A stretch of DNA of 64,000 nt from Geosiphon pyriformis uo1 (lineage: Eukaryota; Fungi; Glomeromycota), in NCBI GenBank assembly GCA_016748015.1, contig JAAOMT010000295.1:124001-188000 (forward strand), in the 5' to 3' direction. Below, in pieces: positions 1,628 to 64,000 of the stretch. The notes under the pieces were generated by a model. That model was not told the origin of the DNA. It saw only the letters and a list, made by a program, of their open reading frames with translations, and did not search any database. Position numbers and translations under genes: made by a program. How positions within the stretch are numbered: position 1 is the first letter of the stretch; the number at the start of each line of letters is the position of its first letter.

Positions 1628-2619
1628 TGTTACCAGTAAAATTTTAGCTATTAATTAGCATGAAATTACTCTTATAATTCTTATAATTAATTAGTATATT
1701 AATATCATTTCAAATTATCATTTATTATTTAATCAATTATTATATATTACAATTCAATTAAAATAATCTAATTAGTATAACAGAAAGTAAGATAATCAAA
1801 TTACACAATATCCTGAACTTTGTAATATTTTAAAATTTGTTGAAATTTACAGAAATTTGCTGAAATTTATAGAAATTCGCTGAAATTATGAATAGTTCAC
1901 CCAAATTAATCAATAGTTTAGCAAAATAACTTGTAGTTCATTAAAATGTATTTTTAGTTTGCTGAAAGTAGAGCAAAGAGAAAAAGTGCAAGTTCATAGA
2001 CTAATACTACAACAAGTTGTATAAAAAAAGAGCTTTTCTCTTCAAGAAAATGTATCTTATTTTAGATTTATCACTTAGAACCATTTCTACACACACAAAA
2101 AGAAATAAATATCAAATAATTTAAAAAACCAAATTCTTTAATTATTTTACTTGAAAAATCCCCAAAACCCAACTAATGTTTTGAAATTAATTAGCTACCA
2201 ATTTCAGTAAACTGTTAGTGACTCTAGGCCTGGATAAAAAAACGTTTCCCTTGACAGAATTCAATTTTTTTTATATTTCTTTTATTTTTCTTTTATTTTC
2301 TTATTATAATTATTAAGGTAGCCTACAGACAAAATTCCTGTAGAAGAGTTGACTTTCACAGCAAAATAACTACACATTTTTAGTGAGCTTCCAGATGAGC
2401 AATTCCTGGGAAAGAGTTGATATTTACTACAATGTAACTACATAAAGTAACTGGTACAGAATTGGCCATTCTACTTATAAGCCAGCAAGTTCAAATTATA
2501 GAAGATAATTTGAAAATAAATTCAGTTATTGGAGGTTCAACTACTTCTAAAAAACGTGAATTTGCAACCAACAAACATTTACAACATTCAAAAAAAGAGA
2601 CCAAAAACCTCCAGTAATA
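1628..2619 (+). repeat. 5' LTR of A1
   Basis: Starts TGTTACCA, ends CCAGTAATA (CA mutated). Direct repeat of 10522-11534. Confidence 0.95.
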
Positions 2620-2621
2620 TT

Positions 2622-2633
2622 TGGTGCTCTTCC
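2622..2633 (+). promoter_or_regulatory. Primer binding site of A1
   Basis: TGGTGCTCT.. 2 nt after the LTR end, complementary to a tRNA 3' end (..GAGCACCA). tRNA identity not established. Confidence 0.75.
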
Positions 2634-2666
2634 ATGGAAATAATACAGCAAACAACAAACTTCAAA

Positions 2667-5600
2667 GTGGCAACCACACCAGATACAACAACTCTAGAGT
2701 ATTATCAGTCAATTTACATCCATTGCAAGTAGAGATTCAACATTCCAAACGGAATTGAAATTGTTGAAAGAACACTCTACCAATACATTGAAAACCATAT
2801 CAACAATTATCTTCTTGAAAATTACAACATTTCAAAAGTGAAAAGCAACCTCTACAATAATCTAGTACACTATTCACAATTGAGAACTGAAGACCTTAAT
2901 AGTGAAACACTTGCCACCTACTTTTAAGAACTCAATTACAACATTATTAAGTATTGTGAAGAAAAATACCTAGTACAGTCTAAATACTTTTTTGACTTTG
3001 AATCAGAAACAGAAACAGACAACAAAAACAAACAAAAAGTGAAACAACACTCAAAAACCACTCCAAACACTCCAATACTACCAAAGACAACTGCCAAACA
3101 CTTGCAAACACCTGAACAAGGAACCAGTGTCAAATTACTACTTTTTATCACACTATTTCCAATTTCACTTGTTCGACCACAAACACCAAATTCACCACTT
3201 AACCATTTCTCCAGACCAAAAGATTTTCAGTTACCTAGAAATCCTACTCAACAGCAGAAACCTATATTAACAAGCACCAATATTATTGAATACTTGCAGG
3301 AAAACGAAAGTGATCATTTAGAAAATTTGGAAAGTGAAGAAACTGAATCAGAACAAAGAGAAAATGGCAACTGCTTACATTGCAAAAATTCCAGAATTCA
3401 CGGGTGAAAATAATGATACCAGTCCTCAAGAATGGCTTGACAAAGTTCAAAAAGCAGAAGATAAAAATGGTTGGATTGCAGCAAGAATGCTTAAAGCAAT
3501 TCCCTACTTTCTCCAAAGAACAGCAGGAGAATGGTTTGAAAATTTAGAAGAACCATTTGAGAACTGACAAGCATTCAAAGATGCTTTCTTACAACAATTC
3601 ACTGACAACAACACCTCTATTACTCTCCGCAATTGCTTTCACAATATCAAACAAGAAACATCTGAAACTGTTATGACCTATCTTGGAAGATTTAACAAAC
3701 TTCTCAAACAAATTTGACAATTGGAAACCAATAACTACTATTCTAATGCTCAAATTCTGGATCAGTTTATAGCAGAGTTAAAAGACAAACTGATTAAGAA
3801 AGTCTGTCCACATGCTCCAGCAGACTTAGCAACTGCTATTAAACATGCAAAGAGCTATAAAATGGCAATGGAAGAAGCAAATCACACCAAGCTTGTAAAC
3901 CTTGCAATTGGAGAAACCAGCTCAGCAGCTGAAGAGAAAATAAACCAACTCACAAAAAAGATTGAAAGCTACTTTACAAACCAACAACAACAGCAACAAC
4001 AACCACAAAGATATCAACCTCCACAACAATGCAACCAAAACAATTTTGAATTACCATCCAACAACCAACCTCAAAATTGTCATTATTTTGGAATTCCAGG
4101 ATACTGGAAACAAGATTGTAGGAAATTACAAAGAGACCAACAAAACAGGAGTAATCAACATTACTCTTCACTACAACAATCTTATTACCAATCTCCACCA
4201 CCAATCTATTATTCACCAAGACCACAAAATCAAAACAGTTACTATCTACCAGCTCTACAACCAATGCAGCAACAATATCAACAACCTTTACCAATTCAGC
4301 CATATCAGACACCACCCACTCAACAATATCAAGTACCAGCAAGAAAATTGGTTTAACATAACCAATTCACACTCCAAAATCAATTGCAGAGTAACAACAA
4401 CAGAATTAATCCAAATAACCAGTTGGTTCCCCGAAATTCTGGTCAGCAAAGACCCAATCTCTATCACACTCAACCCAGTTATTTTACAATACCAGAAGAA
4501 TCGGATTTTCAACAAACTGTACTTTCTGAAAGTGAAGTTACAGCACCAAGATCAAACCCTTCCAACCACACCATTCCACTAGCTCAAATTGTCCAAAATG
4601 CCAATCTGTCAAATATATTTCCATTTGTATTTGAAGCAAATGAATCACCATTTCTGCTTAGTAATGCAGCAGTCAATGAACAAAAAACAATTACTGCTAT
4701 GTACACAAAAGCTACAGTAGAAGGAAAACCCATTCACTTAATCTTAGATAGTGGATTGGCTGGAAGTATCATTACTTACCAGCTGATGCAACAACTCAAA
4801 TGAAATGTAGACAGACCAGCTCAAACAGTTATTGTCACAGCTGATGGTAGAAAAAAAACTCCAGTAGAAAAAATTGATGATTTCCCCTTTACAATTGATG
4901 GAATCACTATTTCAGTTAAAGTTCTTGTTATGGATGCACCCCAATACCAAGGTCTAATCGGAAATGATTGGCTTTTTAAGGCCAATACAAACCTGAACTG
5001 AAAAACTCAAGAAATTAAAATCTCATACCAAGGACAATATATCATAGTACTTGCAACCTGTGGTATCTTTACCAAATGATCAGAAAAAGCTCCAGTATTT
5101 GAATTTGAAGAAGAGAAGGAAATGCCACTCACTGAAACCTACATGGCTCTTGAATCACCATCCAATTGGGCTGAGAAAACAGAACAAGAGATTTTTGAAG
5201 AATCAAGAGGATGGAAGAAAGTTAGATATTCCATACCAGAACCACAAAAAAAACCACCACACATTCCACTAAAATGCAAAAATTGCAAAAAGAAGCTTTC
5301 ATCTATAGGAGCCTGTATTTTTCCAGAAGAGGAATACAAAACTTGCACTTGTTACTTCTGCAAGACATGCCATAGAGAACGATTTGAATCCCCAAAGAGA
5401 AGTGGAAAATGGGACAAAACTCTTTGTCTTACTTGTAGAGAAAGGCTACCAGAAGAATGCAATTAGATTGATGTAACAATAAGAGGAGGAGTATGTAATC
5501 AGACCTGTCAATATGCTCTATCAATTTCAGAAAAAGTCAGAAGAGGAACACCATTTGATGTAGTATACAACAGTGCTCTCAATAAACTTTACCACTACCC

Positions 5601-8244
5601 TCATGATGCTAAAATGATTTTTGACCTAGCAATGGCATTGATCAATAAAGCCACCCAAAAAAATGTTCACCAAATGAAAGAAACTGAATACATTGAGTAT
5701 ATCATGGAATTAGCTGGATTTGATTATGAAGATGAAGTAGAAACCTACCACCAAAGAAGCTCAAATTCAATAATTAGAGCAAATAAACATTCAATTGTGT
5801 GAAGAATGTGTTATGCCTTGTGATGACCAATAGTGTTTAGAATGTTATGCTCTTAGCATTTCTCTGCCAGATGAAAATGATGAAAATGAAATCGAATTTG
5901 AAGTATCTGAACTAGTAGAAAAACTACCACCCACTCCCATCTATCTTCTTGAAAAACAATCATCTTTACAACTTAATATTTTGACAACAATGGCCAAGGA
6001 ATCAGACCAGAAAAAGCACACGAAATTGATGCTGGATATGACCTAAGATACCCAGGAAAAAATATTTTGATTCTCCAACCAAAGTCCTTAACAAAAATCA
6101 ATTTCAAAATTGCTTTTGAAATTCCACCAGGAGCAATGGTTCAAATTGCCTCCAGATCATCATTGGCAAGCAAAGGAATCAATATTAGAGGAGGAGTTAT
6201 AGATGCAGGATACACTGGAGACATTACCATCATGTTACAGAATGAGACAGACAAACCATTCAAAATTGAACATGCTGAAAAAATTGCTCAAGCAATTTAC
6301 TTACTCTTAATCAACATTTCGGGTTTACAATCAGTAAACAACAGAAAACAATTGGGAAAAAATGAAAGAGAAATTCAAGGTTTTGGTTCAACTAGATGAT
6401 TTACAGTTCCAGAAAACATAGCTCTTAATACACAAAATGAATCTCACCAGATTCTTCAACTTCTCCAGCCAATTACCATTTCACCTTTTGGAAAACATCA
6501 CGAAATTTACACTTGCTCAAAACCTACCACTACACAACAAATCTTTGAATCCAATAAACAAATCTGTTTGAAGCATAAAATCTTAATTCCAAACGTTTAT
6601 ATTCCCAAAGGAATGAAAAAATTTTGAGTTACATTCTACAACCCCAATAATTACCCTATTGTCTTATTAAACAAAGTAGAAATTAGAATTATACACAGCA
6701 ATATCTTTTAAAATAAAAACCCTCAAATTGTCTCTAATTTTATTGAAATTGTAAGGCATACTCTACTCCCAAATCCAAATATTATTCCCACTACTGAAAA
6801 CTACCACTTTTTGGAAAAAAAACTCTCTCGAATCAACATGGGTTCCTTAGAACCTCAACAACAAAGACAATTGAAACAATTGATAGCTGAATTTGCAGAT
6901 ATATTTGCAAAAGACAACAATAATCTGGGAAAAACAGATATAGTTCAACATCAAATCCATACAGAAAATGCTCCACCAAAACATCAGCAAGCTTACAGAG
7001 TGCCATCTGCCAGCCACCAATTCATCAAAAAAGAAGTCCAGAGAATGCTTAATAACGGATTAATTTAACCATCAAGAAGTTCTTGGGCCTTATCAGTAGT
7101 CCTTGTCAAAAAGAAAAATAGAAAAATCAGATTTTGTGTTGACTATTGCCAATTGAACAGTATGACAATTGAAGATGTCTATTCTCTTCTAAGAATTGAT
7201 AACATGTTAGATGCTCTAGGAAAAGCCAAGTTCTTCTCAACTTTAGACTTGGAAAGTAGATACTGACAAGTCGAAATGGATCTAAAAGACTGACCCAAAA
7301 CAGCATTCACTATCCAAGGAGAAAACTATGAGTTTAATGTTATGTCTTTTAGACTCTGCAATGCACCAGCAACATTCTAACGACTTATAGATGTTGTATA
7401 TGAAGGACTCTTATGGCAATCAGTAGTTGTTTATCTTGATAACACTAATGTGTACTCACCAAGCTTCAAAGCCCATTTTATTCATTTGCGAGAAGTTTTT
7501 CAACAATTACGGAAAGCAGAATTGAAGTTGAATATTGAGAAATATCACTTTGGAAAAACAAGCTTAATCTTTCTTAGACACATTGTTAGCAAAGATGGAG
7601 TCAAACCAAACCCTGGAACAATTAGTGTTGTCAAAAACTTCCAAACTTCCAAAAATACTACAGAGCTATAAGGATTTGTAGAATTAGCCTTCTATTATCA
7701 AAAATTCATCAAAGGATTCTCAGAAATTGCCAAACCACTCAATTATCTCACCAATAAAAATGTGCCATACAAATAGACTGAAAAACAACAAAAAGCATTT
7801 GAAACCCTCAAAACAAAGCTGACAATAGTCCCAGTTTTTGCTTACCCAGACTTCAACAAACGATTTTAACTAGCCACTGATGCTTTACACATAACATTTG
7901 GGGCCATCTTATCACAAGTAGATGAAAATGGGCAAGAACAAGTCATCACTTATGCTAATAGAACACTCAAACTAACAAAACTAAAATACAGCTCAACTGA
8001 ATTAGAAGCTGTTGCAGTTATTTGGGCTCTTAAACATTTTCAACAATATCTGAAGAATGAAAAAGAATTTGACATAATAACAAACAACATTGGTTTCAAA
8101 TGGCTCAATAAAAAGAAAATTGAACAAAGTGCCAAACAGTCTTGATGGAATAACTTCCTAGCAGACTACAGATATATTGTACACCACAAACCAGGAAAAC
8201 TACATACCAATGTTGATAGCTTCTCAAGAATGAGACAAGATTAA
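2667..8244 (+). pseudogene. A1 gag-pol: N-terminal extension, Gag (CA + CCHC), aspartic protease, Cys-rich domain, dUTPase, RT, RNase H
   Basis: Motifs IPEFTGE, LDQFIAELK, degenerate knuckle CHYFGIPGYWKQDC, LILDSG, dUTPase GVIDAGYTG and QGFGST, RT and RH motifs. Interrupted by stops and frameshifts. Confidence 0.92.
6010..6399 (+). pseudogene. dUTPase domain within A1 pol
   Basis: All five trimeric dUTPase motifs: AGYDL, RSSLA, GVIDAGYTG, KIAQ, (R)xxQGFGST. Confidence 0.92.
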
Positions 8245-8301
8245 TACTAACAACAATTCTACTACAATTTACCAACTTACCAACAAAATAACCAAACAAG
8301 A

Positions 8302-9687
8302 ATGGATCTCAGAAATTACAGCAATCTTAAAAATTATTTGGAGACCCTTACCATGCCAGAAAACTGGTCTCCAAGTAAAAAACATTGTTTACAACACCAA
8401 TCAAAACAATATTTCATACACCAGAACAAAATCTATTATAAAAATCACAGAAACCCAAACCAACAATTCAGATTAGTACAAGAGAATGAAAAAGAAACAA
8501 TTTTATACAATATGCACACAGATCCGTTTTCAGCACACTTGGGAAGAGATGGAACAATTCAAAGAACTCTTGAACATTATTTTTGGCTTCACATGCAAAA
8601 AAACATTCGACAATATGTAGAATCTTGTGATAGTTGTCAAAGAAGAGGAGGAACTCACCCCACAGAATCTTTAAATCCAATCAAAGTTGGACAACTTTTT
8701 GACAGAGTTGGAATTGATTTAGTCAGACCATTACCTATCACAACCCAAGGAAATTGCTATATTGCAGTAGCAGTAAATTATCTTATCAAATGGCCTAAAG
8801 CTAGAGCCATCCAAAGAGCAGATGCAAAATCAGTAGCAAATTTCATCTATGAAGACATTATTTGTAGACATAAATGCCCAATTGAACTTTTATCTAATCA
8901 AGGAACACATTTTGTGAACAACTTGATACAAAAAATTTGTGAATGGTTCAATGTCAAAAGACCTCTATCATCACCTTATCACTCTCAAACAAATAAACTT
9001 GTAGAACATTTCAACAGAATATTGTGTAAATCTCTAGCCAAAGTCTTAACAGACTTTGAGCAGAAATGAAATATCTTTATTCCATCAGTGTTATTAGCAT
9101 ACAGAACACTAAAACAAGATACTATAAAACACACACTATTTGATCTTACTTATGAAAGGACAGCAATATTACCAATTAATTTTACAGTGGAAACATACCT
9201 AGTGCAACCAATCAATAAAGAAAACTTTAAAAAAACACTCCAAAGAAGGGCCTATACTCTTTTTAGTACACTGGAAGGAAAAAGAAAAATAGCAGCAACT
9301 CATATTGAACATTTCCAAGCTCAACAAAAAGAAAGACATGACAACAAATTACCATCTATTACCAACGAATTTAAAGTTAGAAATAAAGTTTTCTTACACA
9401 GAACTAAGGCTGAAAAACAATGGAGTGGAAAATTTGAAAACAAATGGGATAAACCATTTTATATTCACGAAATTCTAGGCAATGAATCATACAAGTTAAG
9501 ACTTGATAACAAAATACTAGCAAAAGTTGCATATGGAGACAGATTAAAACACTATTATTCCAGAAACAATCCTAAAACATTAATTCCACAAATTGGTACA
9601 CATTTTTTTTTAATTAATCCTGAAGATATTCCCCGAAATTTAAAACCAATAATTATAATAGAACAACAACCAAACTTGAACACTTAA
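8302..9687 (+). pseudogene. A1 integrase, separate ORF with its own ATG
   Basis: HHCC (H..H..CDSC), core GIDLV, NQGTHF, degenerate YHPQTNGLVE, C-terminal W-GPF-like module. No chromodomain seen. Confidence 0.92.
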
Positions 9688-9833
9688 ATTTTACAATAAT
9701 TCTCTAATAAAAACACAAAAACAAAAATAGTAAATAATTACAAAAAACACCCAAACCCAAAAACAAATAAAAACTCCATATCCAAAAAATAATTTTTTTT
9801 ATTCTCTCTTTTCATAAATTAGTCAATTTTATC

Positions 9834-10487
9834 ATGATTATTCCTCGAAATATTCAACAAATATCCCAAAAGTTAATGTTAGCCTTGAAAACACTTCTTG
9901 ACTTATCTATAATGATTAATGGAAGTTAAATTAATTACATTCAGAAAAAAACCACAGTGCCAGTAGCAAATCATTCACAGAACTATCACCCCTATAGAAA
10001 AAAAACAAGAAGTCACTCTGAAAATAAGTTACCAAGACTTTTGAAGCAAGCACTAGAAGAAAATCTTTTAATTGCTCTTATTAACATTCCACCAAATGCT
10101 ACAATGCAACAAAAACTTTTACTACTTCTCAATGAACAGAACAATAAACACACTCTTATCTATAAATACTTTCACATTGGAAAGACACTTTATGAACAAA
10201 AACTGGAACTTGAAGCAACAAATCTTACTCCTGAAGCTATACAAAAACAAATCCACAATGAATTCAAAACAGCAGCTGAACCAACAAACATTCGCTACAA
10301 ACTTAGAACAGCTTTTAGACTCTATGATTTGTTTAATACTTGTGAAAATATTCTACAAAATCCAATACTGCAATCAATAAAAGTCCAATACATTGGCAAA
10401 CTTACAGAACTGAAATTTCAACAATTTTGAGACCAGATTACTTCAATTATTTTGGATCACTATCTCAATATTACAAATAGTGCTTGA
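9834..10487 (+). pseudogene. A1 ORF3, unknown protein between integrase and PPT
   Basis: ATG 9834 is in frame with ORF 9957-10430. Homologous to 63629+ and to B ORF3. 3' end uncertain. Confidence 0.75.
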
Positions 10488-10508
10488 ACTTTAATGGAGC
10501 TTAGTCTT

Positions 10509-10521
10509 GAAAAGAAAATTA
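10509..10521 (+). promoter_or_regulatory. Polypurine tract of A1
   Basis: GAAAAGAAAA directly upstream of the 3' LTR. Confidence 0.7.
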
Positions 10522-11534
10522 TGTTACCAATAGAATTTTAGCTATTAATTAGCATGAAATTACTCTTATAATTCCTATAATTAATTAGTATATTAATATC
10601 ATTTCAAATTATCATTTATTATTTAATCAATTATCACATATCATGATTCAATTAAAATAATCTAATTAGTATAACAGAAAGTAGGATGATCAAATTACAC
10701 AATACTCTGAACTTTGTAACATTCTAAAATTCGCCGAAATTTACAGAAATTCGCCGAAATTTATAAGAAATTTGCCGAAATTTATAGAAATTCGCTGAAA
10801 TTATGAATAGTTCACCCAAATTAATCAATAGTTTAGCGAAATAACTTGTAGTTCATCAAAATATATCTTTAGTTTGCTGAAAGTAGAGCAAAAAAAAAAA
10901 GTGCAAGTTCATAGACTAGTACTACAACAAGTTGTATAAAAGAAGAGCTTTTCTCTTCAAGAAAATGTATCTTACTTTAGATTTATCACTTAGAATCATT
11001 CCTATATACACAAAAAGAAATAAATATCAAATAATTTGAAAAACCAAATTCTTTAATTATTGTACTTGGAAAATTTTCAAAACCCAACTAACATTTTGAA
11101 ATTGATTAGCTACCAATTTCAGTAAACTGTTAGTGACTCCAGGCTTGGATAGAAAACGTTTCCCTTAATAAAATCCTATTTCTTTTATATTTCTTTTATT
11201 TTTATTTTTATTTTCTTATTATAATCATTAAAGTAGCCTACAGACGAGATTCCTATAGAAGAGTTGACTTTTACAGCAAAATAACTACACATTTTTAGTA
11301 AGCTTCCAGACGAGCAATTTCTGGGAAAGAGTTGACATTTACTACAATATAACTACATAAAGTAACTGGCAAGGAATTTGCCATTCCACTTATAAGCTCA
11401 GCAGTTCAAATTATAGGAGATAATTTGAAGATAAATTCAGTTATTGGAGGTTCAAATACTTCTAGAAAATGTAAATTTGCAACCAACAGACAGTTACAAC
11501 ATTCAAAAAAAGAGACCAAAAACCTCCAGTAACA
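10522..11534 (+). repeat. 3' LTR of A1
   Basis: TGTTACCA...CCAGTAACA followed by TSD ATGG. Confidence 0.96.
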
Positions 11535-15700: not shown

Positions 15701-16498
15701 TAAAAATTTGGAATTAATTGAATAGTAGTATTTTAGTCTTTTATTATGTGTAATTTTTTTTAAAATTTTTTTATTAAATTTTAACTTATAAGATTTATTT
15801 TCTAAAATTTTATATATATAAAATAATTTATTTATTTATAATTAAATTTTTTACTTTATTATTTTTTAGTTTTAGTTTTATATAAGAGAACTTTATTTCT
15901 ATCTTTAAATTTATTGATGGCAGATAAAAATTTATTATTATGTTATTTTTTTTATTAAGTTTAAAAATATTTAATATAAATAAATATAATTTATTATTTT
16001 TCTTTTAAAATATTAAAAAAAGTATAAGCTTTTTACTAAAATGTTTTTTAGAAGTTTTTCTTTGTAATTGATTGAACTAAATAGGTTTTTATTAAAAAAT
16101 TAATTAATAATATTGCTGTTTTTTCATATATTAGATTAAATAGTATGTGTTTTATTGTATTTTGTTTTAGTATTCTATATATTAATAATATTAATAGAAT
16201 AAAAATATTCTATTTTGCTTAAAATTAGTTGAAATTTTAACTAATAATTTATAAAGTATTTTATGTTTTATAAGTTTATTTGTTTAAGAATAGTAAAATA
16301 AAAATAAAAATTTTTATATTAAATTATTTACAAATTTTTTGTATTAAAATATTTATAAAATATGTTTTTAATTAAACATTTATATTTACAAATAATGTTT
16401 TTATAGATAAAATTTGTTATTAATTTTGTATCTGTTTTTTAAATAACTTTTGTTTTAAACTATTTTGTAAAATAATCTACAATAACTACAATATATTA

Positions 16499-21685: not shown

Positions 21686-21989
21686 TTATAAATGGGATAT
21701 TATGATAAAAAAGAGGCTCAGATTTAAATTCAATCTGCTAAGAAATTTTTCTAATAAAGCTTTATACTATTTATTTCTGTATAATCTGAAATTTTTTAAG
21801 CAAATATAAACAGAAACCAAGATAGCTTTAGTAATTGTATTTTCTAATACTGCTAAAATTTTTGGCCAATTATTTAAGTATTTTGCTTTAGGTTTACAAG
21901 TTTTGAAGTAGATATCTCTGAATTTTTTGTAGTATTTAGTCAAGTTAAAAATCAATTCTATAAACAATTTTCTAGTAAATGTTGTCAAA

Positions 21990-23800: not shown

Positions 23801-26800
23801 AATAAATAATACAAACTTTTAACCAAATTCAAACTAAACTCAAACTTGATAAAAAAATTCAAGTTTAGTTTATAATTCAAATTAAACTTAAATAATATTT
23901 AAAATTTGATTTAATTTAATTTAATAAATTTCTATTATTAATATTAATAAAAAAATAATTAGATTTTAATAAAATAAGTATAGACTTATAAAATTGTATT
24001 AAGAAAATATAAATTAATAAATTTATTTTAAATATGTGTGAATTTTAGGTATTAAATAATTAATTATATAAATTATTTAATAAAATAGAAATTAAATTTG
24101 TTTTTAATACTTTTATTATATATACATAAATCTTCATAATATAAGATTTTTATTATTAAAATTTTTAACATTCTTAAAATTTTTGCTAATATTTTTAGAT
24201 TTCTTAATATTTTATGCTTTAATAATCTATATTAAATTATTAACTATTTATTTTATATTTTGTTTTTTATTTTTGTTTTGTTTTTACTCTGTAAATAACA
24301 ATTTTTTTTTTAAGAATTTAAAAATTTTTGCAATATATACAGTTGTTATTTTTTTGCTTTTTTTGTTTTTTTTTTCTGTATTAATAAATTTAAAAATACT
24401 TTTTTTATTTGCTAAAGTTTTTGAATGCTTATTTTGGTTTTTTACCAAATAATTAAAAAGATTAATATTTGTGTAAATCAGTTTTGACTATTAAATTTAA
24501 TTTGTTGGTAATATAAAGTTTTTTGATTTTAAAAAACAAATAAGTAGTAAATTAAATGTTTAAGTTTAAACAAATAAAACCAAAAAAGATGTAACTAAAA
24601 ATAGTAATTTAATATTGACTTTTTATTTTGATGTTTACAAGTATTTAATAGTAATTCTTGAGATGTTATGTGTTGTTTAACTAAGTTTGAAGATTTTATT
24701 TATTTTTATTTATTGCTAGTTTTTGTTTGAATTTTAAGTTAAAAAAAATTGTGCTTAAACTAAATATGTTTTTTTTACAAAACTTGGTAATATTGTAAAC
24801 AAATTCTTGAAAATAAATAAAACAAATATTGACACCAATAGTTTTTGTTTTAGTTAAATAATAAATTAAATTTTAAAAGGATTTTATTTAACTTTTTTAA
24901 TATTGTAGTTTTTAAAAAAATAGTTGTTGATTCGATTTTTAATATATTATTAGAAAGTTTTTTTTACAGCTATACTTTTATTTTAGATTCTAAATTTTTG
25001 TTTGCAATATGTATAAATTAATTAATAATACTCTAAAGTTGTGTTAAATATGGTTGTTATTTTGATTAAATTGCTATTGTATTGTTTTTGGAAAAAAACT
25101 AAATATTATTAAATATTTTAATTATTATTTGATAATATTGTTAATGCTATTTTGCAGTTAATTCTATTGTTAATAAATTAATTTATTTTCAAAATATTTC
25201 TTTATACTTTAAATTATTGTTGTTGTTAAATTTATAATAGAATAATCAATTTTATGCTAATTACTTTGTATAACTATTTTGCAATAAAAGTTAACTTTTT
25301 TACAAAAATTCTTATTTGTAAACTTTTAAATTATGTTTAGTTATTTTACTGTAAAAGTCAACTTTTCTACAAAAAATCTTAACTGTAAACTATTTAAAAA
25401 AAAATTAAAATAAAAAAATATAAAAGAAATTATTTTTAATTCAGATTTAGAATTTAATTAAGTAATTATTAAAATTAATAGCTAATTAATTTCAAAATAT
25501 TAGTCGTAATTATAAGTTTTTAAACAATAATATTTTGAAAAAAAATTTGGTTTTTAAAGTAGATTTATTGAATTAATTTGTAGTAGATAATTTCTTTGCT
25601 AAGAAAATAATTCTAAACTAAAATAATTCTAATAAAGATATATTTTCTTAAAAAAAAAGCCCTTTTTTTATATAATTTATTGTAATATTATTTTATGATT
25701 TTGTACTTTTTTTTGCTAATATTTTGGCAAACTACAAGTTAGTTTTACAAACTATTATTTATTTTAGTAAATTATTAAATATTTTATCGAATTTTTAAAT
25801 CTTTTGATGAATTCTTGAATGTTATATAGTTTAAGATATTATATGATCTAATATTTATAATTAATTATATTTGTGTATTATATAAATTAAGTTATTAATT
25901 AAATAATAATATTTAATAATTTGGTAAAATAATAAGTAATAATTTAAAATATTAATATATATTAATTAATAATAAAAATTATAAAAGTAATTTTATGCTA
26001 ATTAATAATTTAAATTTCTATTGATAATAATAATAATAAGTAAAAAAACAATTTAGTTACCAATTTTTTATTAAATACTTTAAAACTTTTAAAAAAACAA
26101 AAACTATATTAAAATTATTTTAGATAAGTTATTTTAAAAAAATAAACTTTTAACCAAAAATAAAAAAAAATGGTTTTAAAACAGCAAAAAATTAGTTAAC
26201 TACTATATTATTTAAAAAAATATATCTACAAAGTATTATTAAGCAGTATTATTTATAAAATAATACAAAAAATAAGCAGTAGTTAAATATAGTATAAATT
26301 AGCTAATAATAAAATAAAAATTATTAGATTATATAATATTAAAAATTCCAAAAATACCAGAAAAAATTTTAAAGATTTTAAAAATATTAAAAATTTTAAT
26401 AATAATTCAAGAAAAGTATAAAAATCATTAGAAATTTTAAAAATTTTGTATTACAAAAATTTATATATATATAATAATAACATTAAAAGTAAAAAAAACA
26501 ATTAGTTTATTAAATTTTTATCAAGTAATTTTAATAATTAAAAATTTAGTACTTAAAGTAAATATTTATTTAATAAAAACCATAATTTAATTATTTACTA
26601 TTCAAGTTTTATGAATTTATATTTATTTTAGCAGTTATTTACATTTAACTAATATTAATAACATTAATTTAAAGTTATTAATTATATTAAAACAATAGTT
26701 TTTAATCATAATTATTAATAAAATATTTATTTTTTATTTTTTATTTATTGTTTTTTGTGTATTTTATTTTGTTTTATTAATTAATTAAAAAAAATATTAA

Positions 26801-31085: not shown

Positions 31086-33727
<2,642 letters not shown>

Positions 33728-42935: not shown

Positions 42936-42952
42936 TGGTGCTCCCTGTGAGG
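42936..42952 (+). promoter_or_regulatory. Primer binding site of B1 (resembles elongator tRNA-Met)
   Basis: TGGTGCTCCCTGTGAGG is complementary to ..CCUCACAGGGAGCACCA, similar to eukaryotic elongator tRNA-Met 3' ends. Confidence 0.75.
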
Positions 42953-42996
42953 TATAATCCTACAGAAAATCAGCACCAACAACACCCATTTAAACA

Positions 42997-45900
42997 GTGG
43001 CAGAATCTGAAGAAACAGGGACAAACCATCTAGGATTTGCAAAATCTTTATTCCAACACTACTGTCAACATTTAGGATTAATTGACAACCACTTATCAGC
43101 AGAATCAGCTTTCAATTTCTACATCAATGAGAGAATCTTATATTTACTAGGAGTACCAGTAAAAACTGACTCAGCTAGAGAAAACTTCTACAATGAATTA
43201 ATCCAGAATATTAGCCTACCAACAAATTACAATTTCACAGCAATCTTCACTGAAATCAATAAAAAAATTGAAATTCACATTCAACAAAGATATCCAATTA
43301 TCTATGCAAACAAAGGCAAAGGAAAATTACAAATATCAGCAATAACACCTTAAAAGATACAACTACCTATTTGGAAGAAAACTAGAGTCAAATTACCAAC
43401 AAAACCATCATATCACTATACATCTGGAAGTGCCATTAATATTACATCAACAGGTATGTCCACATCAACTTTTAGACAATTCCCATTTCAGAGTAAACAA
43501 AGGAAAGAAGATCTTCTAAGATCATATGGCATGTATTTCGAAGGATTTAAGTCACAATTGCCAATGCCATCAGGACTTCGATTTCTGCTACTTCAACCAA
43601 ATTTCGGAACCACAAGCCCCTAGGAAGTAACAGATTTGGGAAAAAAACAAGAAGAAAAGGAAGAAGAATCTGAAGATTAAGAATTTACTTACCAGAACCT
43701 GATCATGGAAAACTCAGAAATCAAAACTCCGAACTTTCAAATTCAGCAAAATCCAACTTTAGAAAATTCAGAAATCCAAACTCCGAATTTTCAAATACAG
43801 TATAATCAGAACAAGTGAAATCCTGACATTAATAATCAATAACACTTATCTCCAGTAATTGTCATCACTAGCTCCACCAAATGTCAAACAACAACAACAA
43901 CAGCCACAACTGCTATCTCAACAAAACCAGCAGCAACCACAACAACAACCAATGGCTTATGCTCCAATTGCCAAAATCAAGAAATTTACCAGTGAAGAGA
44001 ACAATGCTCAAATATGGCTCAACAATATGGAAAAAGCCATTGTAGCCAATGGATGAAATGATGATAGAGCCCTTCAAGCAATTTTCTATTTTCTACAAGA
44101 TATTGCTGACTTGTGGTATCAGAGTTTAGCCATTAAACCTTAAACATTCCAGGAATTCAAAACTGCATTTTTAGGATATTTTAGTAATAATAACAGCATT
44201 AATTGCTTAGCCAACACCTTCACCATAATCAAACAAGGAGAAACTGAAGCAGTTACCACTTACTTGGGATGTTTCCACAGGAATTTACACCAAATCCAAG
44301 CAATTCAAGCTGACTATTTTACAGTGCCTCAGATTCTAAACCAGTTCATCCGTGGACTGCATAGTAGTCTTTTCCAGTGTGTACATCCAATGCATTCACA
44401 AACTCTCCAAAATGCCATCATAAATGCCAGAAATTTTGAATTGGCAAAACTCAAAGCAAGCCATGCCCAAGCTGTTAATCTAGTAATGAATGGATCATTT
44501 GAATTGGATTCCAAATTGAAACAATTCAGTGATTTAATTAATCAGAAATTGGAAGGATACTTAGCTGACAATCGTGCAATTTATCAACCACCACAACAAC
44601 ACAATAATTTAGAAAACATGAATTGTTTCCAAAATTAGTCGCATCTATCATTATCTCCAAATCAGCCATGGCAACAAGAGACACATGTCTGCCATAACTG
44701 TGGTAAACAAGACCACATTAGAGCCGACTGCTAATTTTATAATAATAATCAACAATTGGGAAATCAATATTGAAACCCCAATTGCCAGTTCCCAATTCTG
44801 AGTTACCAATCCAATTCAGCCCCATATCAACTAACTTATCTGTCAATAATACAACAGCCAATATATCAACCACTCATATATTAATCTCCAGTTTATCAAC
44901 CGCAACCACTGATAATATATCAACCACCACAGCCACAAATAATTTATCAGACACCCACAGTTCAAACATTGCTATTAAACCCAGCTCAAATGACATCAGG
45001 AAACCCTAGATCGAAAGCCACCCAAAACTGGAGATCAGCAATGGTTGTTCACCAACCAATTCCCAGTTCATCCAACCAGCCATCAGAATTACAACAGTGG
45101 AGTTCAGGAACCAGGTATACTCAAAACCCGAGTTCCCAGAACTATTTAAGTCTTCTGGCTACCTCAGAAGACACCTCACCCAACACTTGAGAACCCAAAC
45201 AGAAGCAATTACTTACCAATATTCTGGCAGCCACTATTATAGAAAATGAGTCTCTAGCAGCTATATTTCTTTTCGAAATCGAGGAACTGACAGAAACTCC
45301 TTTGTTTAGTGGAGCCACACTCGAGGAAAAACCTATTATGGTAATGTACACAGATGCCAAAATTAATAGTCAGTTCATCAAACTGATTCTAGATAGTGGA
45401 TTAGCTGGCAGTATTATCACAAGACAATTCATAGACCAATTAGGTCACCAAGTTGATCAAGCTGCCAATGCAAGAATAATTACCGCTGATGGAGCCACCA
45501 AGACTCCAATTGGTAAAATAGATAACTTGCCCATAGAAATCAATGGCATCACTGTACTAATCAAGATATTAGTCATAGAAGCCACTCAATACCAAGCACT
45601 AGTGGGTAATAACTGGCTGTTCAAAATCAAAATGACACTTGATTGGAACACTCAAGAGCTCCAGCTTAGCCAGAACAGACAACACACACATGTACCAGCC
45701 ACATGTGGCCATTTCAAACTCATTATCACGCCATCAGCTTTACTTATCAAATTTGAAGAAAAAAAAAAAAACCTACCTGGAAAGCATACCAAGTCTCTTG
45801 GGCCGACGAAGACTACAACAAGCTACCACCGATACTTTTTTGGGACAACAAGAGAAAAGAGAAGAAAAACAAAAAACTTACTTGGAATACTGACCAAAAC

Positions 45901-55393: not shown

Positions 55394-58300
55394 TGTTACC
55401 AGTAGAATTTTAGTTATTAATTAGCATGAAATTACTCTTATAATTCTTATAATTAATTAGTATATTAATATTATTTCAAATTATCATTTATTATTTAATC
55501 AATTATCACATATTACAATTCAATTAAATAATTCAATTAGTATAACAGAAAGTAGAATGATCAAATTACACAATACCTTGAACTTTGTAACATTTAAAAA
55601 TTTGCCAAAATTTACAGAAATTCGCCGAAATTTATAAAAAATTCACCAAAGTTTATAGAAATTCGCTGAAATTATGAATAGTTTACCCAAATTAATTAAT
55701 AGTTCAGTGAAATAACTTGTAGTCCATTAAAATGTATCTTTAGTTTGCCAAAATTTGAGCAAAGAGAAAAAGTGCAAGTTCATAGACTAGTACTACAACA
55801 AGTTATATAAAAGAAGAGCTTTTCTCTTTAAGAAAATGTATCTTACTTTAGATTTATCACTTAGAACTATTCATATACACACAAAAAAAAATAAATATCA
55901 AATAATTTGAAAAAACCAAATTCTTTAATTATTGCACTTGGGAAATCCCCAAAACCCAACTAACGTTTTGAAATTGATTAGCTACCAATTTCAGTAAACT
56001 GTTAGTGACTCCAGGTCTGGATAGAAAACGTTTCCCTTGACAGAATTCAACTTTTTTTACATTTCTTTTACTTTTCTTTTATTTTCTTATTATAATCATT
56101 AGGGTAACCTACAGACAAGATTCCTGTAGAAAAGTTGATTTTCACAGCAAAGTAACTACACATTTTTAGTGAGCTTTCAGACAAGCAATTCCTGGGAAAG
56201 AGTTGACGTTTACTACAACATAACTACATAAAGTAACTGGCAAAGAATTGATCATTCCACTTATAAGCCCAGCAAGTTCAAATTATAGAAGATAATTTGA
56301 AGATAAATTCAGTTATTGGAGGTTCAACTACTTTTAGAAAACATGAATTTGCAACCAACAGACATTTACAACATTCAAGAAAAGAGACCAAAAACCTCCA
56401 GTAACATTTGGTCCTCTCCTACAGAAATAATACAGCAACAACAAATTCAAAGTGGCGACCACACTAGACATAACAACTCTAGAGTATTATCAGTCAATTT
56501 ACATCCACTGCAAGCAAAGATTCAACATCCCAGACGGAATTGAAGTTGTCAAGAAATCAGTATACCAATATATTGAAAATCACATCAACAATTATCTTTT
56601 TGGAAACTACAACATTTCAGAAGTTAGAAGCAACCTCTACAATAATTTAGTGCACTATTCACAATTGAGAACAGAAGACCTAAACAGTAAAACACTTGCT
56701 ACCTACTTCCAAGAACTTAATTTTAATATTATTGAGTACTGTGAAGAAAAATATTCAGTACAGCCCAAATATTCTTTTAACTTTGAATCAGAAACAGAAA
56801 CAAGCAACAAAGGCAAACAAAAAGTGAAACAATACTTAAGAACCACTTCAAACACTTCAATACTACCAAAGACAACTGCCAAACACTTGCAAACACCTGA
56901 ACAAGAAACCAGTGTCAAATTACCACTTTCTATTACACCATTTCCAATTTCACTTGTTCAACCACAAACACCAAGTTCACTACTTAACCGTTTCTTCAGA
57001 CCAGAAGATTTTCAGTCACCTAAAAATCCTACTCAACAACAGGAACCAATATCAACAAGTGCCAATATTATTGATTACTTACAGGAAAACGAAAGTAATC
57101 ATTCAGAAAGCTTGGAAAGTGAAGAAACTAAACCAGAACCAGAAGAAACCACAGAAAATGGAAAAGAAATGGCAACTGCTTATATTGCAAAGATTTCAGA
57201 ATTCACGGGTGAAGATAATGATACCAGTCCTCAAGAATGGCTTGACAAAGTTCAAAAAGCAGGAGATACAAATGGTTGGAATGCAACAAGAATACTCAAA
57301 ACAATTTCATACTTTCTCCAAGGAACTGCAGAAGAATGATTTGAAAACTTAGAAGAACCATTTGAAAACTGGCAAGCATTCAAAGATGCTTTTTTATAAC
57401 AATTCACTGACAACAACACTTCTATCACTCTCAGAAACTGCTTTTGCAATATCAAGCAAGAAACATCTGAAACTGTTATGACCTATCTTGGAAGATTCAA
57501 CAAACTTCTTAGACAAATTCAACAATTGGAAACCAATGACTACTATTCCGATGCTCAAATTCTGGATCAGTTTATAGCAGGGTTAAAAAACAAACTGATT
57601 AAGAAAGTCTGTCCACATGCTCCAACAGACTTAGCAACTGCCATTAAACATGCAAAGAATTATAAAATAACTATGGAAGAAGCGAACCACACCAAACTTG
57701 TTAATTTGGCTATTAGAAAAACCAGCTCAGCAGCTAAAGAAAAGATAGACCAACTCACAAAGAAAGTTGAAAGCTATTTTACAAACCAGCAACAACTACA
57801 AAAATATCAACCACCACAGTGATGCAACCAAAACAACTTTAGACCATCATCCAACAACCAACCTCAAAATTGTCATTATTGTGGAATTCCAGAACACTGA
57901 AAACAAGATTGCAGAAAACTACAAAGAGACCAACAAAACAGGAGTAATCAATGTTATTCTTTACCATAACAATCTTATTACCAACTCCCACCACCAACTT
58001 ATTATTCACCAAGACCACAAATTCAAAACAGCTATTATCAACCAGCTCCACAACCAATTCAACAACAATATCAGCAACTTTTACCAATTCAGCAATTTTA
58101 GATACCACTAACTCAACAATATTAAGTACCAGCAAGAAAATTGGTTCAACATAACCAATTCACATTCCAAAATCAATTACAGAGTAACAACAACAGAATC
58201 AATCCAAATAACCATTTGGTTCTCCGAAATTCTGGTCAGCAAAGACCCAATCACTATCACACTCAACCCAGTTATCTTACAATACCAGAGGAATCGGATT

Positions 58301-61300
58301 TTCAATAAACTGCACTTTCTGAAAGTGAAGTTGCAGCACCAAGATCAAACCCTTCCAACCACACCATTTCACCAGCTCAAATTGCCCAAAATGCCAATCT
58401 GTCAGATATATTTCCATTTGAATTTGAAGCAAATGAATCACCATTTCTGCTTAGTAATGCAGCAGTCAATGAACAAAAAGCAATTACTGCTATGTACACA
58501 GAAGCTACAGTAGAAGGAAAAGCTATTTGCTTAATTCTAGATAGTAGATCTGCTAGAAGTATCATCACTTACCAGCTGATGCAACAACTCAAACAAAATG
58601 TAGACAGACCAGTTCAAACATTTATTGTCACAACTAATGGTATGAAGAAGACCTCAGTAGAAGAAATTAATGATTTCCCCTTTACAATTGATGGAATCAT
58701 CATTCCAGTTAAAGTTCTTGTTATGGATGCACTCCAATACTAAGCTCTAATCAGAAATGATTGGCTTCTCAAGGCCAATGCAAACCTGAACTGGGAAACT
58801 CAAGAACTTAAAATCTCATACCAAGGACAATATACTATAGTATCTGTAACCTGTGGTATCTTTAACAAATGATCAGAAAAAGCTCCAGTATTTGAATTTG
58901 AGGAAGAAAAAAAAATGCCAATTACTGAAACTTACATGGCTTTTGAATCAACATCCAATTGGGCTGAAGAAACAGAACAAGAAATTTTTGAGAAAACAAG
59001 AGGATAGAAGAAGATTCGGTATTCTATACCAAAACCATGAAAAGAACCACCATATATTTCACTAAAATGCAAAGATTGTAAAAAGAAGCTTTCATCTATG
59101 AAAGCCTGTATTTCTTCAGAAGAAGAATATGAGACTCGCACTTACTACTTCTACAAGGCATGCCATAGAGAACAATTTGGATCCCCAAAGAGAAGTAGAA
59201 AATGGGACAAAACTTCTTGTCTTACTTGTGAAGAAATGCTACCAGAAGAATGCAATTGGATTGATGTAGCAATGAGAGGAGGAGTATATAATCAGACCTG
59301 TCAATATGCTCTATCAATTTCGGAAAAACTCAGAAAAAAAACATCATTTGATGTAACATACAACAGTGCTCTCAATAAACTTTACTACTACCTTCATAAT
59401 GCTGAAATGATTTTTGACCTAGCAATAGCATTAATCAATGGGGCCACCTAAGAAGATGTCCGCCAAATAAAAGAAGCTGAATACATTGAGTATACTATGG
59501 AATTAGCTGGATTTGATTATAAAGATAAAGTAGAAACCTATCACCAAATTGCAAGCCACACATATCTGACCAAAGAAGTTCAAATTCAATGATTAGAGCA
59601 AATGAACATTCAATTGTGTGAAAAATGTGTTATGTCTTGTGATGACCAATGGTGTTTAGAATGTTATGCTCTTAGCATTTTTCTGCCAAATGAGAATGAT
59701 AAAAATGAAATCGAATTTGGAGTATCTGAACTAGTAGAAGAACTACCAACCACTCCCATCTATCTTCTTAAAAAGCAACCATCTCTACAACTTAAATATT
59801 TTGACAACCATGGCCAAAGATTCAGACCAAAAAAAGCACACGAAATTGATGCTGAATATGACTTAAGATACCTAGGAAAAAATACTTTGGTTCTCCAACC
59901 AAAGTTTTTGACAAAAATCAATCTCAAAATTGCTCTTGAAATTCCACCAGGAGCAATGATTCAAATTGCCTTCAGATTATCATTGGCAAGCAAAAAAATC
60001 AATATTAGAAGAGAAGTTATAGATGCAGGATATACTGGAGACATTACTATCATGTTACAGAATGAAACAGATAAACCATTCAAGATTAAACATGCTGAAA
60101 AAATTGCTCAGACAATTTACTTACCCTTAATCAACATTTTGGGTTTACAATCAGTAAACAACAGAAAACAATTGGGAAAAAGTGAAAAAGAAACTCAAGG
60201 TTTTGGTTCAACTGGACGATTTACAGTTTCAGTAAACATAGCTCTTAATACACAAAATGAATCTCACCAGATTCTTCAACTTTTCTAGCCAATTACCATT
60301 TCACTTTTTGAAGAACATCACGAAATTTACACTTGCTCAAAACCCACTACTACACAACAAATCTTTGAATCCAATAAACAAATCTGTTTGAAGTATGAAA
60401 TCTCAATTCCAAACATTTATATTCCCAAAGGAATGAAAAAATTTCAAATTACATTCTACAACCCCAATAATTACTCTATTGTTTTATTAAACAAACTGGA
60501 GATTAGAATCATACACAGCAATATTTTTCAAGATGAAAACCCTCAAATTGTCTCTAATTTCATTGAAATTGTAAGGCACACTCTATTCCCAAATCCAAAT
60601 ATCATTCTTACTACTGAAAACTACCACTTTTTGGAAGAAAAACTCTCTCGAATCAACATGAGTCCCTTAGAACCTTAACAACAAAGACAATTGAAACAAT
60701 TGATAGCTGAATTTGCAGATATATTTGCAAAAGACAACAATGACCTGGGAAAAACAAATATGGTTCAACATCAGATCCATACAGAAGATGCTTCACCAAA
60801 ACATCAGCAAGCTTACAGAGTACCACCTGCCAGCCATCAATTCATCAAAGAAAAAGTCCAGAGAATGCTCAATAACAAATTGATTCAATCATTAAGAAGT
60901 CCTTGTCAAAAAAAAAATAGAAAAATCAGATTTTGTGTTGACTATCACCAAGTGAACAGTGTGACAATTAGAGATGTCTACCCTCTTCCAAAAATTGATA
61001 ACATGTTAGATGCTCTAGGAAAAGCCAAGTTCTTTTCAACTTTAGACTTAGAAAGTGAATACTGGCAAGTCGAAATAGACTCAAAAGACTGACCCAAAAC
61101 AGCATTCACTACCCAAGAAGGAAACTATGAGTTTAATGTTATGTCTTTTGGACTTTGCAATGCACCAGCAACATTTCAACAACTCATAGATGTTGTATAT
61201 AAAGAACTCTTATAGCAATCAGTAGTTGTTTATCTTGATAACACTGATGTGTATTCATCAAGCTTTGAAGCCCATCTTATTCACTTGCAAGAAGTTTTTT

Positions 61301-64000
61301 AATGATTATGAAAAGCAGGATTGAAGTTGAATATTGAGAAATATCACTTTGAAAAAACAAGCTTAATCTTCCTCAAACACATTGTTAGCAAAGATGGAGT
61401 CAAACCAAATTCTAGAACAATTAGTGCTGTCAAAAACTTTCAAACTTCCAGAAATACCACAGAACTACAAGGATTTGTAGGATTAGTCTCTTACTATCAA
61501 AAATTTATAAAAAAATTCTCAGAAATTGCCAAACCACTCAATTATCTTACCAACAAAAACGTACCATACAAATGGACTGAAGAACAACAAAAAGCTTTTG
61601 AAACTCTCAAAACAAAATTAACAACAGCCCCAGTTCTTGCTTACCCAGACTTCAACAAACAATTCCAATTAGCCACTAATGTTTCACACATAGCATTTGA
61701 TGCCATCTTATCACAATTGGATGAAAATGGCCAGAAACAAGTTATTGCCTATGCCAGCAGAACACTCAAGCTGACAGAACTCAAATATGGCTCAACTGAA
61801 TTGGAAGCTGTTGCAGTCATCTGGGCTCTCAAACACTTTCAACAATACCTGAAGAATGAAAAAGAATTTGACATAATAACTGACAATATTGGTCTTAAAT
61901 GGCTTAATAAAAAAAAACTGAACAAAGTGCCAAACAGTCTCAATGAAATAACTTCCTAGCAGACTATAGATATATTGTACACCACAAACCAGGAAAACTA
62001 CATACCAATGTTGATAGCCTCTCAAGAATGAGACAAGATTAATACCAACAACAATTCCACCACAACTTACCAACTTACCAACAAAATAACCAAACAAGAA
62101 TGGATTCCAGAAATTACAGCAATCTTAAAAATTATTTGGAGACCCTTACCATGCCAGAAAACTGGTCTTTAAGTGAAAAACATCATTTACAATACCAATC
62201 AAAACAATATTTCATACACCAGAACAAAATCTATTATAAAAATCACAGAAACCCAAACCAACCACTCAGATTAGTACAAGAGAATGAAAAAGAAACAATT
62301 TTATACAACATGCACACAGATCCGTCTTTAGCACACTTGGAAAGAGATAAAACAATTCAAAAAACCCTTGAACATTATTTTTGGCCTTACATGCAAAAAG
62401 ACATTCGACAATATATAGAATCTTGTGATAGTTGTCAAAAAAGAGAAGGAATTCACTCCACAGAACCTTTAAATTCAATCAAAGTTGGACAATTTTTTGA
62501 CAGAGTTGGAATTGATTTAGTCGGACCATTACCTATCACAACTCAAGGAAATTGCTATATTGCAGTAGCAGTAGATTATCTTACCAAATGGCCTGAAACT
62601 AGAGCCATCCAAAGAGCAGATGCAAAATCAGTAGCAAATTTCATCTATGAAGACATTATTTGTAGACATAGATGTCCAATTGAACTTTTATCTGATCAAG
62701 GAACACATTTTGTGAACAACTTAATACAAGAAATTTGTAAATGGTTCAATGTCAAAAGATTTCTATCATTATCTTATTACTCTCAAACAAATGGACTTGT
62801 AGAATGTTTCAATAGAACATTGTGTGAATCTCTAGCCAAAGTCTCAACAGACTTTAAGCAGGAATGGGATATCTTTATTCCATCAGTGTTACTAGCATAC
62901 AGAATGCTAAAACAAGATATTATAAAACACATACCATTTGATTTTACTTATAGAAGGACAGCAACATTACCAATTAATTTCACAGTGGAAACATACTCAG
63001 TGCAACCAATCAATGAAGAAAACTTTCAAGAAACACTCCAAAGAAGGGCCTACACTCTTCTTAGTACACTGAAAGGAAAAAGAAGAATAGCAGCAACTCA
63101 TATTGAACATTCCCAAGCTTAACAAAAAGAAAAACATGACAACAAATTACCATCTATTACCAACAAATTTAAAGTTGGAAATAAAGTTCTCTTATACAGA
63201 ACTAAGACTGAAAAACAATGGAGTAGAAAATTTGAAAACAAATGGAATGGACTATTTTATATTCACGAAATTCTAGGCAATGGATCATACAAGTTAAGAC
63301 TTGATGACAAAATACTAGTAAAAGTTGCACATAGAAACAGATTAAAACATTATCATTCCAGAAACAATCCTGAAACATTAATTCCACAAATTGGTATACA
63401 TTCTCCTTTAATTAATCCTGAAGATATTCCCCGAAATTTAGAACTAATAATTATAATAGAACAACAACCAAACTTGAACACTTAAATTTTACAATAATTT
63501 TCTAATAAAAATACAAAGACAAAAATAGTAAATAATTACAAAAACACTTAAACCCAAAAACAAATAAAAACCCCATATCCAAAAATAATTTTCTTTATTC
63601 TCTCTTTTCATAATTAGTCAATTTTATCATGATTATTTCCCGAAATATTCAACAAATATCCCAAAAGTTAATATTAGCCTTGAAAACACTTCCTGACTTA
63701 TCCATAACGATTAATGGAAGTCAAATTAATTACATTCAGAAAAAAACCACAGCCCCAGTAGCAAATCATTCACAGAACTATCACCCCTATAGAAAAAAAA
63801 CAAGAAGTCACTCTGAAAATAGGTTACCAAGACTTTTGAAGCAAGCACTGGAAGAAAATCTTTTAATTGCCCCTATTGACATTCCATCAAATACTACAAT
63901 GCAACAAAAACTTTTACTACTTTTCAATGAACAGAACAATGAACACACCCCTATCTATAAATACTTTCACATTGGAAAGACACTTTATGAACGAAAACTA
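55394..64000 (+). mobile_element. Family A copy A3 (runs off the window): 5' LTR 55394-56406, gag-pol 56452-62042, integrase 62100-63485, ORF3 from 63629
   Basis: Colinear with A1. Left flank ATGG. The ORF fragments from 56452 to 61321 all lie in one frame. Confidence 0.95.

Follow-up and report, generated by a model that had tools for sequence, protein, structure and literature searches.

The question raised by this locus is how translation of Gag begins in LTR retrotransposons whose first open reading frame is headed by GTG and whose next several hundred nucleotides are nearly free of ATG. LTR-retrotransposon Gag is normally annotated from the first ATG, and a sequence-only reading of the 64,000-nucleotide stretch of Geosiphon pyriformis DNA analysed here (the window) had proposed that weak initiation at GUG gives an extended Gag, and that scanning to a downstream AUG gives a short one. 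We describe a GTG-headed, ATG-poor Gag extension that is a real feature, with good support at the level of sequence and translation as what we infer from it. The host genome consists of 41.2% LTR sequence (PMC11952901).

Two families of decayed Ty3/gypsy elements

Self-comparison of the window reveals nested LTR elements of two families: family A, with the elements A1 (1628-11532, + strand) and A3 (+ strand, starting at 55394) and a solo LTR (49632), and family B, with the element B1. The LTRs are about 1 kb long and 90% alike, with TG...CA ends and 4-bp target duplications; in A1 the 5' LTR (1628..2619, + strand) is paired with a 3' LTR at 10522-11532, and the duplicated target is ATGG. A PBS-like motif is seen in the sequence of A1 at 2622..2637 (+ strand), and in B1 such a motif and a spacer occupy 42936..42996 (+ strand); the motif starts with TGG and would serve as a PBS, and a purine tract is a candidate PPT. 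Folding predicts that the family B PBS pairs with an AGCACCA farther downstream (42936-42978), although the score is not significant (z -1.5); B subfamilies seem to retain AGCACCA in differing frames, which suggests constraint at the RNA level.

Pfam recovers the order Gag, aspartyl protease, dUTPase, RNase H and integrase, with Retrotrans_gag above the cut-off in B1 and Ty3_capsid below it, and the nearest solved structure to the RT-RNaseH is that of Ty3 (E 1.9e-25, the best of seven matches), MLV RT scoring far lower. The homologues of the two extensions that were listed (the best 120 of 244 and the best 120 of 176) are Geosiphon pyriformis gene models in 240 of 240 cases, one of them 99% identical to A3. 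From the LTRs, the domain order, the closeness of the RT-RNaseH to Ty3 and the exclusively Geosiphon pyriformis origin of the homologues among the matches listed, we conclude that A1, A3 and B1 are decayed fungal Ty3/gypsy (Metaviridae) LTR retrotransposons. Copies number in the hundreds, are LTR-bounded and decayed, and every one that we examined has decayed. In A3 the capsid ATG is followed by CA-NC-PR-dUTPase-RT-RNaseH-IN (57169..63119, + strand, from Pfam and structure matches), and the Gag frame up to 61910 carries 21 stops; since 18 of these are absent from A1 and the three common to both stand at likely CpG codons, gag-pol in an active element was likely one long ORF. The dUTPase sits between protease and reverse transcriptase in both families (59593-60285 and 46596-47363).

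Several other features of the window were observed. A heavily decayed A-like extension fragment, whose start codon is unreadable, lies on the minus strand at 24881..25057, and a second B-type LTR with an integrase fragment (52254-55393) is inverted and abuts the 3' LTR of B1 at 53121/53122. Element remnants at 12000-16000 and 22000-28000 have 11-21% G+C with C and G almost all gone, a decay that far exceeds the CpG decay of their neighbours and resembles a hypermutation process. Another decayed element, with endonuclease- and RT-like reading frames on the minus strand at 16400-23300, is probably a non-LTR retrotransposon. Between 28000 and 38000 there is a CpG-rich island (27-60 CpG per 2 kb, as against about 8 elsewhere), which probably represents host genes and includes a minus-strand ORF of 320 codons (32771-33733) with no Pfam match.

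The GTG codon and the domain behind it

The observation that a GTG in strong context heads the first ORF was borne out in all three elements, the candidate GUG starts lying on the + strand at 2667..2669 in A1 and 56452..56454 in A3 (both aaaGTGG) and at 42997..42999 in B1 (acaGTGG). In A1 a predicted four-helix bundle (2667..2966, + strand, with in-frame stops at 2730 and 2925) is followed by a basic KxK motif and a low-complexity P/S/T/Q/N/E linker (2967..3363, + strand), and then by the capsid ATG (3364..3366, + strand); the frame is indeed broken ahead of that ATG, by a 20-nt deletion near 3361 that had been placed near 3355. The A3 extension (56452..57168, + strand) has 239 codons, comprising a predicted four-helix domain of about 100 aa and the linker, and its frame is open and continuous into the capsid. 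That of B1 (42997..43951, + strand) consists of a homologous predicted four-helix domain and a longer linker, and its frame is interrupted by five stops and shifts near 43870, with nine ATGs in the stretch; the capsid ATG of B1 (43952..43954, + strand) keeps the register relative to the capsid domain that is seen in family A. In none of the three does the GTG itself begin a stop-bounded frame, the nearest in-frame stop upstream being 150 nt away in A1, 24 nt in A3 and 6 nt in B1. An in-frame ATG found 33 nt before the GTG in A1 (2634..2636, + strand) is lacking in A3, and across 17 gene models this site reads R in 4, W in 7 and Q in 6, the pattern of a decayed CpG. We rejected it as the true start, as it was likely made by CpG decay and the frame of the spacer varies among copies.

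Several lines of evidence show that GTG is ancestral in both lineages, as read from the gene-model sequences. In family A the start codon encodes Val in 82 of 115 anchored models (from 120 fetched, the best 120 of 244 matches), Met in 14, and is otherwise or unaligned in 19; nine of the 14 Met stand at model N-termini and five beside unrelated upstream residues, which we read as predicted splice junctions. Family B has Val in 102 of 119 and Met in 6 (best 120 of 176 matches), and a third B-type lineage has four Val, two Met and one junction Leu. These counts rest on gene models made automatically, a procedure biased towards copies that have an ATG or offer a usable splice. A check on the family consensus thus returns Val and not Met as the majority in both lineages. 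Background decay at codon position 1 is one-way, with G-to-A changes at 240 of 2232 positions (10.8%) and A-to-G at 5 of 3165 (0.16%), so that Val cannot arise from ATG by decay, as had been argued, and Met at 6-15% is what a decaying GTG is expected to give when gene callers favour Met copies. We also considered an origin of the GTG from GCG and rejected it, because the neighbouring GCG codon scatters to Ala, Val, Thr and Ile, and codon 1 shows no true Ala.

Both context positions are preserved, a purine at -3 and a G at +4. Immediately upstream of the start, 137 B-type models have K in 113 cases, T in 17, N in five, I in one and S in one, and 136 of them (K, T, N, I) have an A-initial codon at this position. 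This pattern bears on the main rival to GUG initiation, in which aaAG|TG holds a 3' splice acceptor at its AG, and joining to an upstream exon with a final A creates an AUG for the long form. Unspliced genomic RNA, scanned as far as the capsid AUG, would give the short form; there would again be two isoforms, with no need of a non-AUG start. K and T before the start match AAG and CAG acceptors, the gene models use the G|TG junction (five Met and five Leu cases in family A), candidate A|GT donors are present in both leaders, and the ATG desert described below is accounted for equally well. Leader splicing is also plausible from the B LTRs, with their T tract, TACTAAC and AAG. However, the residue ahead of the start is Asn in five B models, and Asn codons leave no AG, which weakens this explanation; four of the five belong to one 11-row sub-clade (in a quick tree with most forks unresolved), where the raised share of Met fits a CpG at AAC|GTG. 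Moreover, T makes up just 15-20% of the 40 nt before the GTG, and a search nearby gave no CTRAY motif. We regard a splice-made AUG as unlikely.

The LTR motifs themselves deserve a note. In the B LTRs at 52710-52795 (+ strand) and 53262 (- strand), and in decayed form at 42535-42605, a long T-rich tract and TACTAAC are followed a few bases on by AAG, and a second TACTAAC lies upstream at 42510 and 52679; the A LTRs have ACTAAC and then TTAG near 55960. These look like the branch point and acceptor of a leader intron, which could define a spliced, translation-only RNA.

Downstream of the GTG the extension behaves as a coding domain. The A and B extensions are 23% identical, their GTGs align to within two residues, their profiles match (E 6e-6, probability 85%, 92 columns) and conservation begins at the GTG in both families. 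The spacer upstream meets the GTG in three frames, in the proportions 23/8/5 in family A, with 77 of 113 models unclassifiable, and about 84/20/14 in family B, where the classes are approximate and 28 of 146 models are unclassified; a fixed reading frame therefore begins only at the GTG, and slippage in A-runs may contribute to the variation. AlphaFold2 (AF2) places helices at 7-23, 31-50, 55-69 and 79-100 from an A-led alignment (mean pLDDT 81, three of five models confident) and at 12-26, 33-50, 57-71 and 81-98 from B sequences alone (one of five models confident), and A and B are thus predicted to share one four-helix domain, after which come the conserved basic KxK motif and the low-complexity linker. 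The extension is constrained at the protein level, as judged from the A-B profile match and the same predicted fold, which goes against the lack of coding constraint that had been named as refuting the proposal. Between A1 and A3, codons 1-113 have 22 synonymous and 15 non-synonymous differences, resembling RT-RH at 38:27; the linker (5 synonymous, 26 non-synonymous) and the integrase (10:53) indicate that counts from two copies are a poor gauge of constraint.

Structure prediction, also suggested at the outset, gives a four-helix domain with no match to a known family or fold. Pfam returned no family above the cut-off in 14 members of the extension, the PDB sequence search no match, Foldseek against the PDB and viral libraries no match at E<=0.001, the Atlas no usable match, and comparison with 48,161 chains no structure at Z>=8, the best being a designed protein (Z 6.9, rmsd 3.4, 100 aligned) with no matrix fold among the matches listed; absent Pfam, PDB and Foldseek matches do not imply that the fold is new. 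Retroviral matrix proteins carry Gly at position 2 for myristoylation; here that Gly is absent, and the majority residue at position 2 is Ala in both families. A hydropathy scan of the extension shows no hydrophobic signal or anchor, the maximum over 19 residues being 0.74 in A3 and 0.83 in B1. A metagenome scan for relatives confirmed none of 127 pattern matches. A profile search gave 206 proteins, and of the best 150 listed 29 were known already and 121 were new, 120 of the latter aligning to family A or B and one being a repeat-rich chance match; the library is nameless and only the best 150 of 206 were covered, so relatives in other fungi are possible.

Scarcity of ATG upstream of the capsid

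Between the GTG and the capsid ATG there are no ATGs in A1 (2667-3363), one in A3 and nine in B1. As the sequence-only reading had noted, A1 lacks ATG in any frame over this interval, and the single A3 example, at 57158 and out of frame, precedes the in-frame 57169 that lies 239 codons past the GTG. The accompanying estimate of about ten expected by composition was slightly high, base composition giving 8.1-8.8 and dinucleotides 6.8-8.1; we take 7-9 as the expectation for family A, and about 12 for B1 against the nine observed, of which four are in frame and five out. The ATG-free gaps of A1 and A3 are the second and third longest on the + strand of the window. Upstream of the GTG, the A3 leader (R-U5-PBS, 55839..56451, + strand, after a TATA-like box near 55803) has no ATG in common with A1, and the stretch free of shared ATGs reaches about 610 nt farther, through U5. 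Over these 1,330 nt (55839-57168) A1 and A3 share no ATG, as against 12.5-21.5 per kb downstream, and at the lowest downstream rate the Poisson probability is 1.3e-4 for the 717-nt extension and 6e-8 for the full 1,330 nt. At the upstream edge, an A LTR ATG at 55836, near the predicted cap site, is present in three of four LTRs, and B LTR ATGs at 42444 and 42494 occur in three of three copies and would fall within the leader if a TATA near 42320 is used. We note that 55836 in A and 42708 in B are each an ATG some 30-40 nt past a TATA-like box, which would open a short uORF.

Family-wide comparisons extend these counts. Met is the majority residue in 0 of 231 and 0 of 289 columns of the two extensions, which bears on the question of whether the consensus has internal ATGs; against the resulting 0 of 520, the internal columns of the capsid number 6 with Met as majority out of 447 (p 0.01). 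Tyr, His, Asn or Asp followed by a codon starting with G, a junction that can form an out-of-frame ATG, occurs at 3 of 46 in the A3 extension and 32 of 154 in pol (p 0.03), and C is used at two of three such junctions in the extension as against 2 of 32 in pol (p 0.03). At all eight potential out-of-frame-ATG junctions of both extensions the following G decays in a CpG-like manner (0.23-0.54), while control junctions of the same regions decay at pooled rates of 0.16 and 0.22 (p 7e-5), which suggests that the ancestral sequence was C|G rather than T|G. The lone out-of-frame ATG of A3 (57158..57160, + strand) itself falls on an Asn|Glu junction, whose decay (0.44) is of the CpG type. Comparison of extension with capsid junctions is also significant (p 2e-4) but mixes Glu with Ala/Asp columns, and decay at the B capsid junctions is raised as well (median 0.26).

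The ATGs of B1 had been noted as possibly ACG-derived. Its four in-frame Mets are minority residues in their alignment columns, and all five out-of-frame ATGs lie at potential-ATG codon junctions. Three of the latter were compared with pooled contigs, and at the readable one, 43193, C is found in 25% and A in 29%, like a neighbouring CpG site, although T is still the majority at 43194. A desert in family B would therefore be one reconstructed from decayed copies.

Some measures are weak when taken singly, namely the absence of in-frame Met in family A alone (p 0.06) and the count of out-of-frame ATGs with the protein held fixed (mean 1.9, P(<=1) 0.32). The region is A/C-rich, and the control trinucleotide for the minus strand, CAT, is likewise scarce in the A extension (four shared in 717 nt, as against 7.5-17 per kb downstream); another ATG gap, of 440 nt, lies in the Q/P-rich tail of Gag. 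Such observations would fit an extension that is untranslated, or is the relic of an ATG-started domain lost in master copies, with a merely compositional scarcity of ATG. Against this stand the GTG at a homologous codon in lineages only 23% identical, the conservation of the domain and its predicted fold, and a frame that is fixed from the GTG onward only, and we consider this explanation highly improbable and already largely refuted.

Long and short polyproteins and their counterparts

The model that we favour, and hold to be probable on the sequence features above, is that weak GUG initiation and leaky scanning yield long and short polyproteins. Ribosomes would start weakly at the GUG of the conserved Gag extension to give a minor long polyprotein, and most would scan past the extension, poor in ATG as it is, and begin at the conserved AUG of the capsid to give a major short one. 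The proposal of an extended and a short Gag is supported in this form, and the checks that could be made, on the start-codon consensus, internal ATGs and coding constraint, all came out in its favour; we infer that the GUG is used and that ribosomes scan across 700-950 nt, as well as the relative amounts of long and short form. Purging out-of-frame ATGs pays only if ribosomes pass the GUG, which makes the capsid Met their obvious target: it is the majority residue in both families, in the same register, and is the first residue of the capsid region. Because Gag and Pol are apparently one ORF, both forms would be full polyproteins, the long one adding the predicted four-helix domain, the basic KxK motif and a flexible linker. 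It could serve as an adaptor on a few subunits per particle, for localisation or binding of host factors, a guess that we think somewhat unlikely. A GUG that has A at -3 and G at +4 is a textbook weak start; initiation at GUG in a context of this kind is on record, as are near-cognate codons at 2-30% and scanning across about 895 nt (PMC3542737). Downstream of the GTG we found no hairpin above shuffled sequences (z 0.19, -0.32 and 0.43).

Two other arrangements keep the GUG as a start. In the first it is the sole functional start, the capsid Met is kept for structure or cleavage, and ATGs are purged because leaked out-of-frame starts harm the genomic RNA, for example through nonsense-mediated decay. 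DAP5 starts solely at GUG (PMC5666671), and the B capsid ATG is mostly preceded by Pro, a weaker context. However, Met stands at the same register in both lineages as the first capsid-region residue, and normal ATG density resumes straight after it (12.9 shared per kb, out-of-frame ATGs being common), as fits a barrier at that point; we find the GUG-only arrangement improbable. In the second, a separate internal RNA is the source of the short form, on the model of Ty1 p22 and its Ty1i RNA; the short form may then restrict copy number, and the GUG form is the main polyprotein. Truncated Gag from an internally initiated RNA has precedent (PMC5408680), but such a transcript needs just a short local desert, and the one seen here spans the whole extension and the A leader, so that we rate this as very unlikely.

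Weak GUG initiation with leaky scanning invites comparison with known systems. The analogy with MLV glyco-Gag, a CUG-initiated Gag extension that gives two Gag forms by leaky scanning (PMC3542737), holds for the translation logic and not for the rest. The likeness is an in-frame near-cognate codon upstream of the Gag AUG, known here from sequence alone; the differences are CUG there and GUG here, a gammaretrovirus there and fungal Ty3/gypsy here, and a predicted soluble four-helix domain and linker in place of a hydrophobic signal or anchor segment. Human PEG10, a Ty3/gypsy-derived gene, uses both CUG and AUG starts, and resembles the present elements in having an upstream non-AUG and a downstream AUG start on a Ty3/gypsy Gag; however, PEG10 is domesticated, with a 34-aa extension and a -1 frameshift (PMC2800197), whereas these are multi-copy LTR-bounded elements with extensions of 239 to about 320 aa, a predicted domain of their own, and a gag-pol that looks like one ORF. 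The AUU-started ORF I of rice tungro bacilliform virus, over which about 895 nt are scanned (PMC3542737), is likewise a long AUG-poor coding stretch after a non-AUG start, but this plant pararetrovirus has separate ORFs, in contrast to the in-frame fusion of extension and Gag in the present elements. Among fungi, Neurospora cpc-1 has a conserved long in-frame N-terminal extension from near-cognate codons (PMC5487733); the gene encodes a transcription factor of the cell itself, with control by uORFs and several candidate start codons. Relative to Ty3/gypsy (Metaviridae) elements, the LTRs and the Gag-PR-RT-RH-IN order agree, a PBS-like motif and a PPT-like purine tract are present, and what departs from the typical element is the extra N-terminal domain of no known family behind the GTG, together with a dUTPase between PR and RT.

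Our coverage of the literature, which was partial, yielded no report of non-AUG Gag initiation in a fungal LTR retrotransposon, nor of these elements, and an earlier description is possible. We advance tentatively the broader view that, an old fungal Ty3/gypsy clade relies on a conserved GUG to equip a minority of its Gag-Pol polyproteins with an accessory domain, four-helical and of a new family, with AUGs purged from 1.3 kb to set the ratio. If true, glyco-Gag would have a parallel among transposons, though one whose added domain is soluble and unrelated. Should initiation at GUG prove real, these LTR elements have been annotated without a conserved domain of about 100 aa and without a second form of the polyprotein, and hundreds of public gene models would be artefacts built to find an ATG. 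The elements would then offer a natural case, in an early-diverging fungus, in which the stringency of start-codon choice sets the ratio of isoforms, together with a new family of domains that could be assayed for a part in the particle or in countering host silencing.
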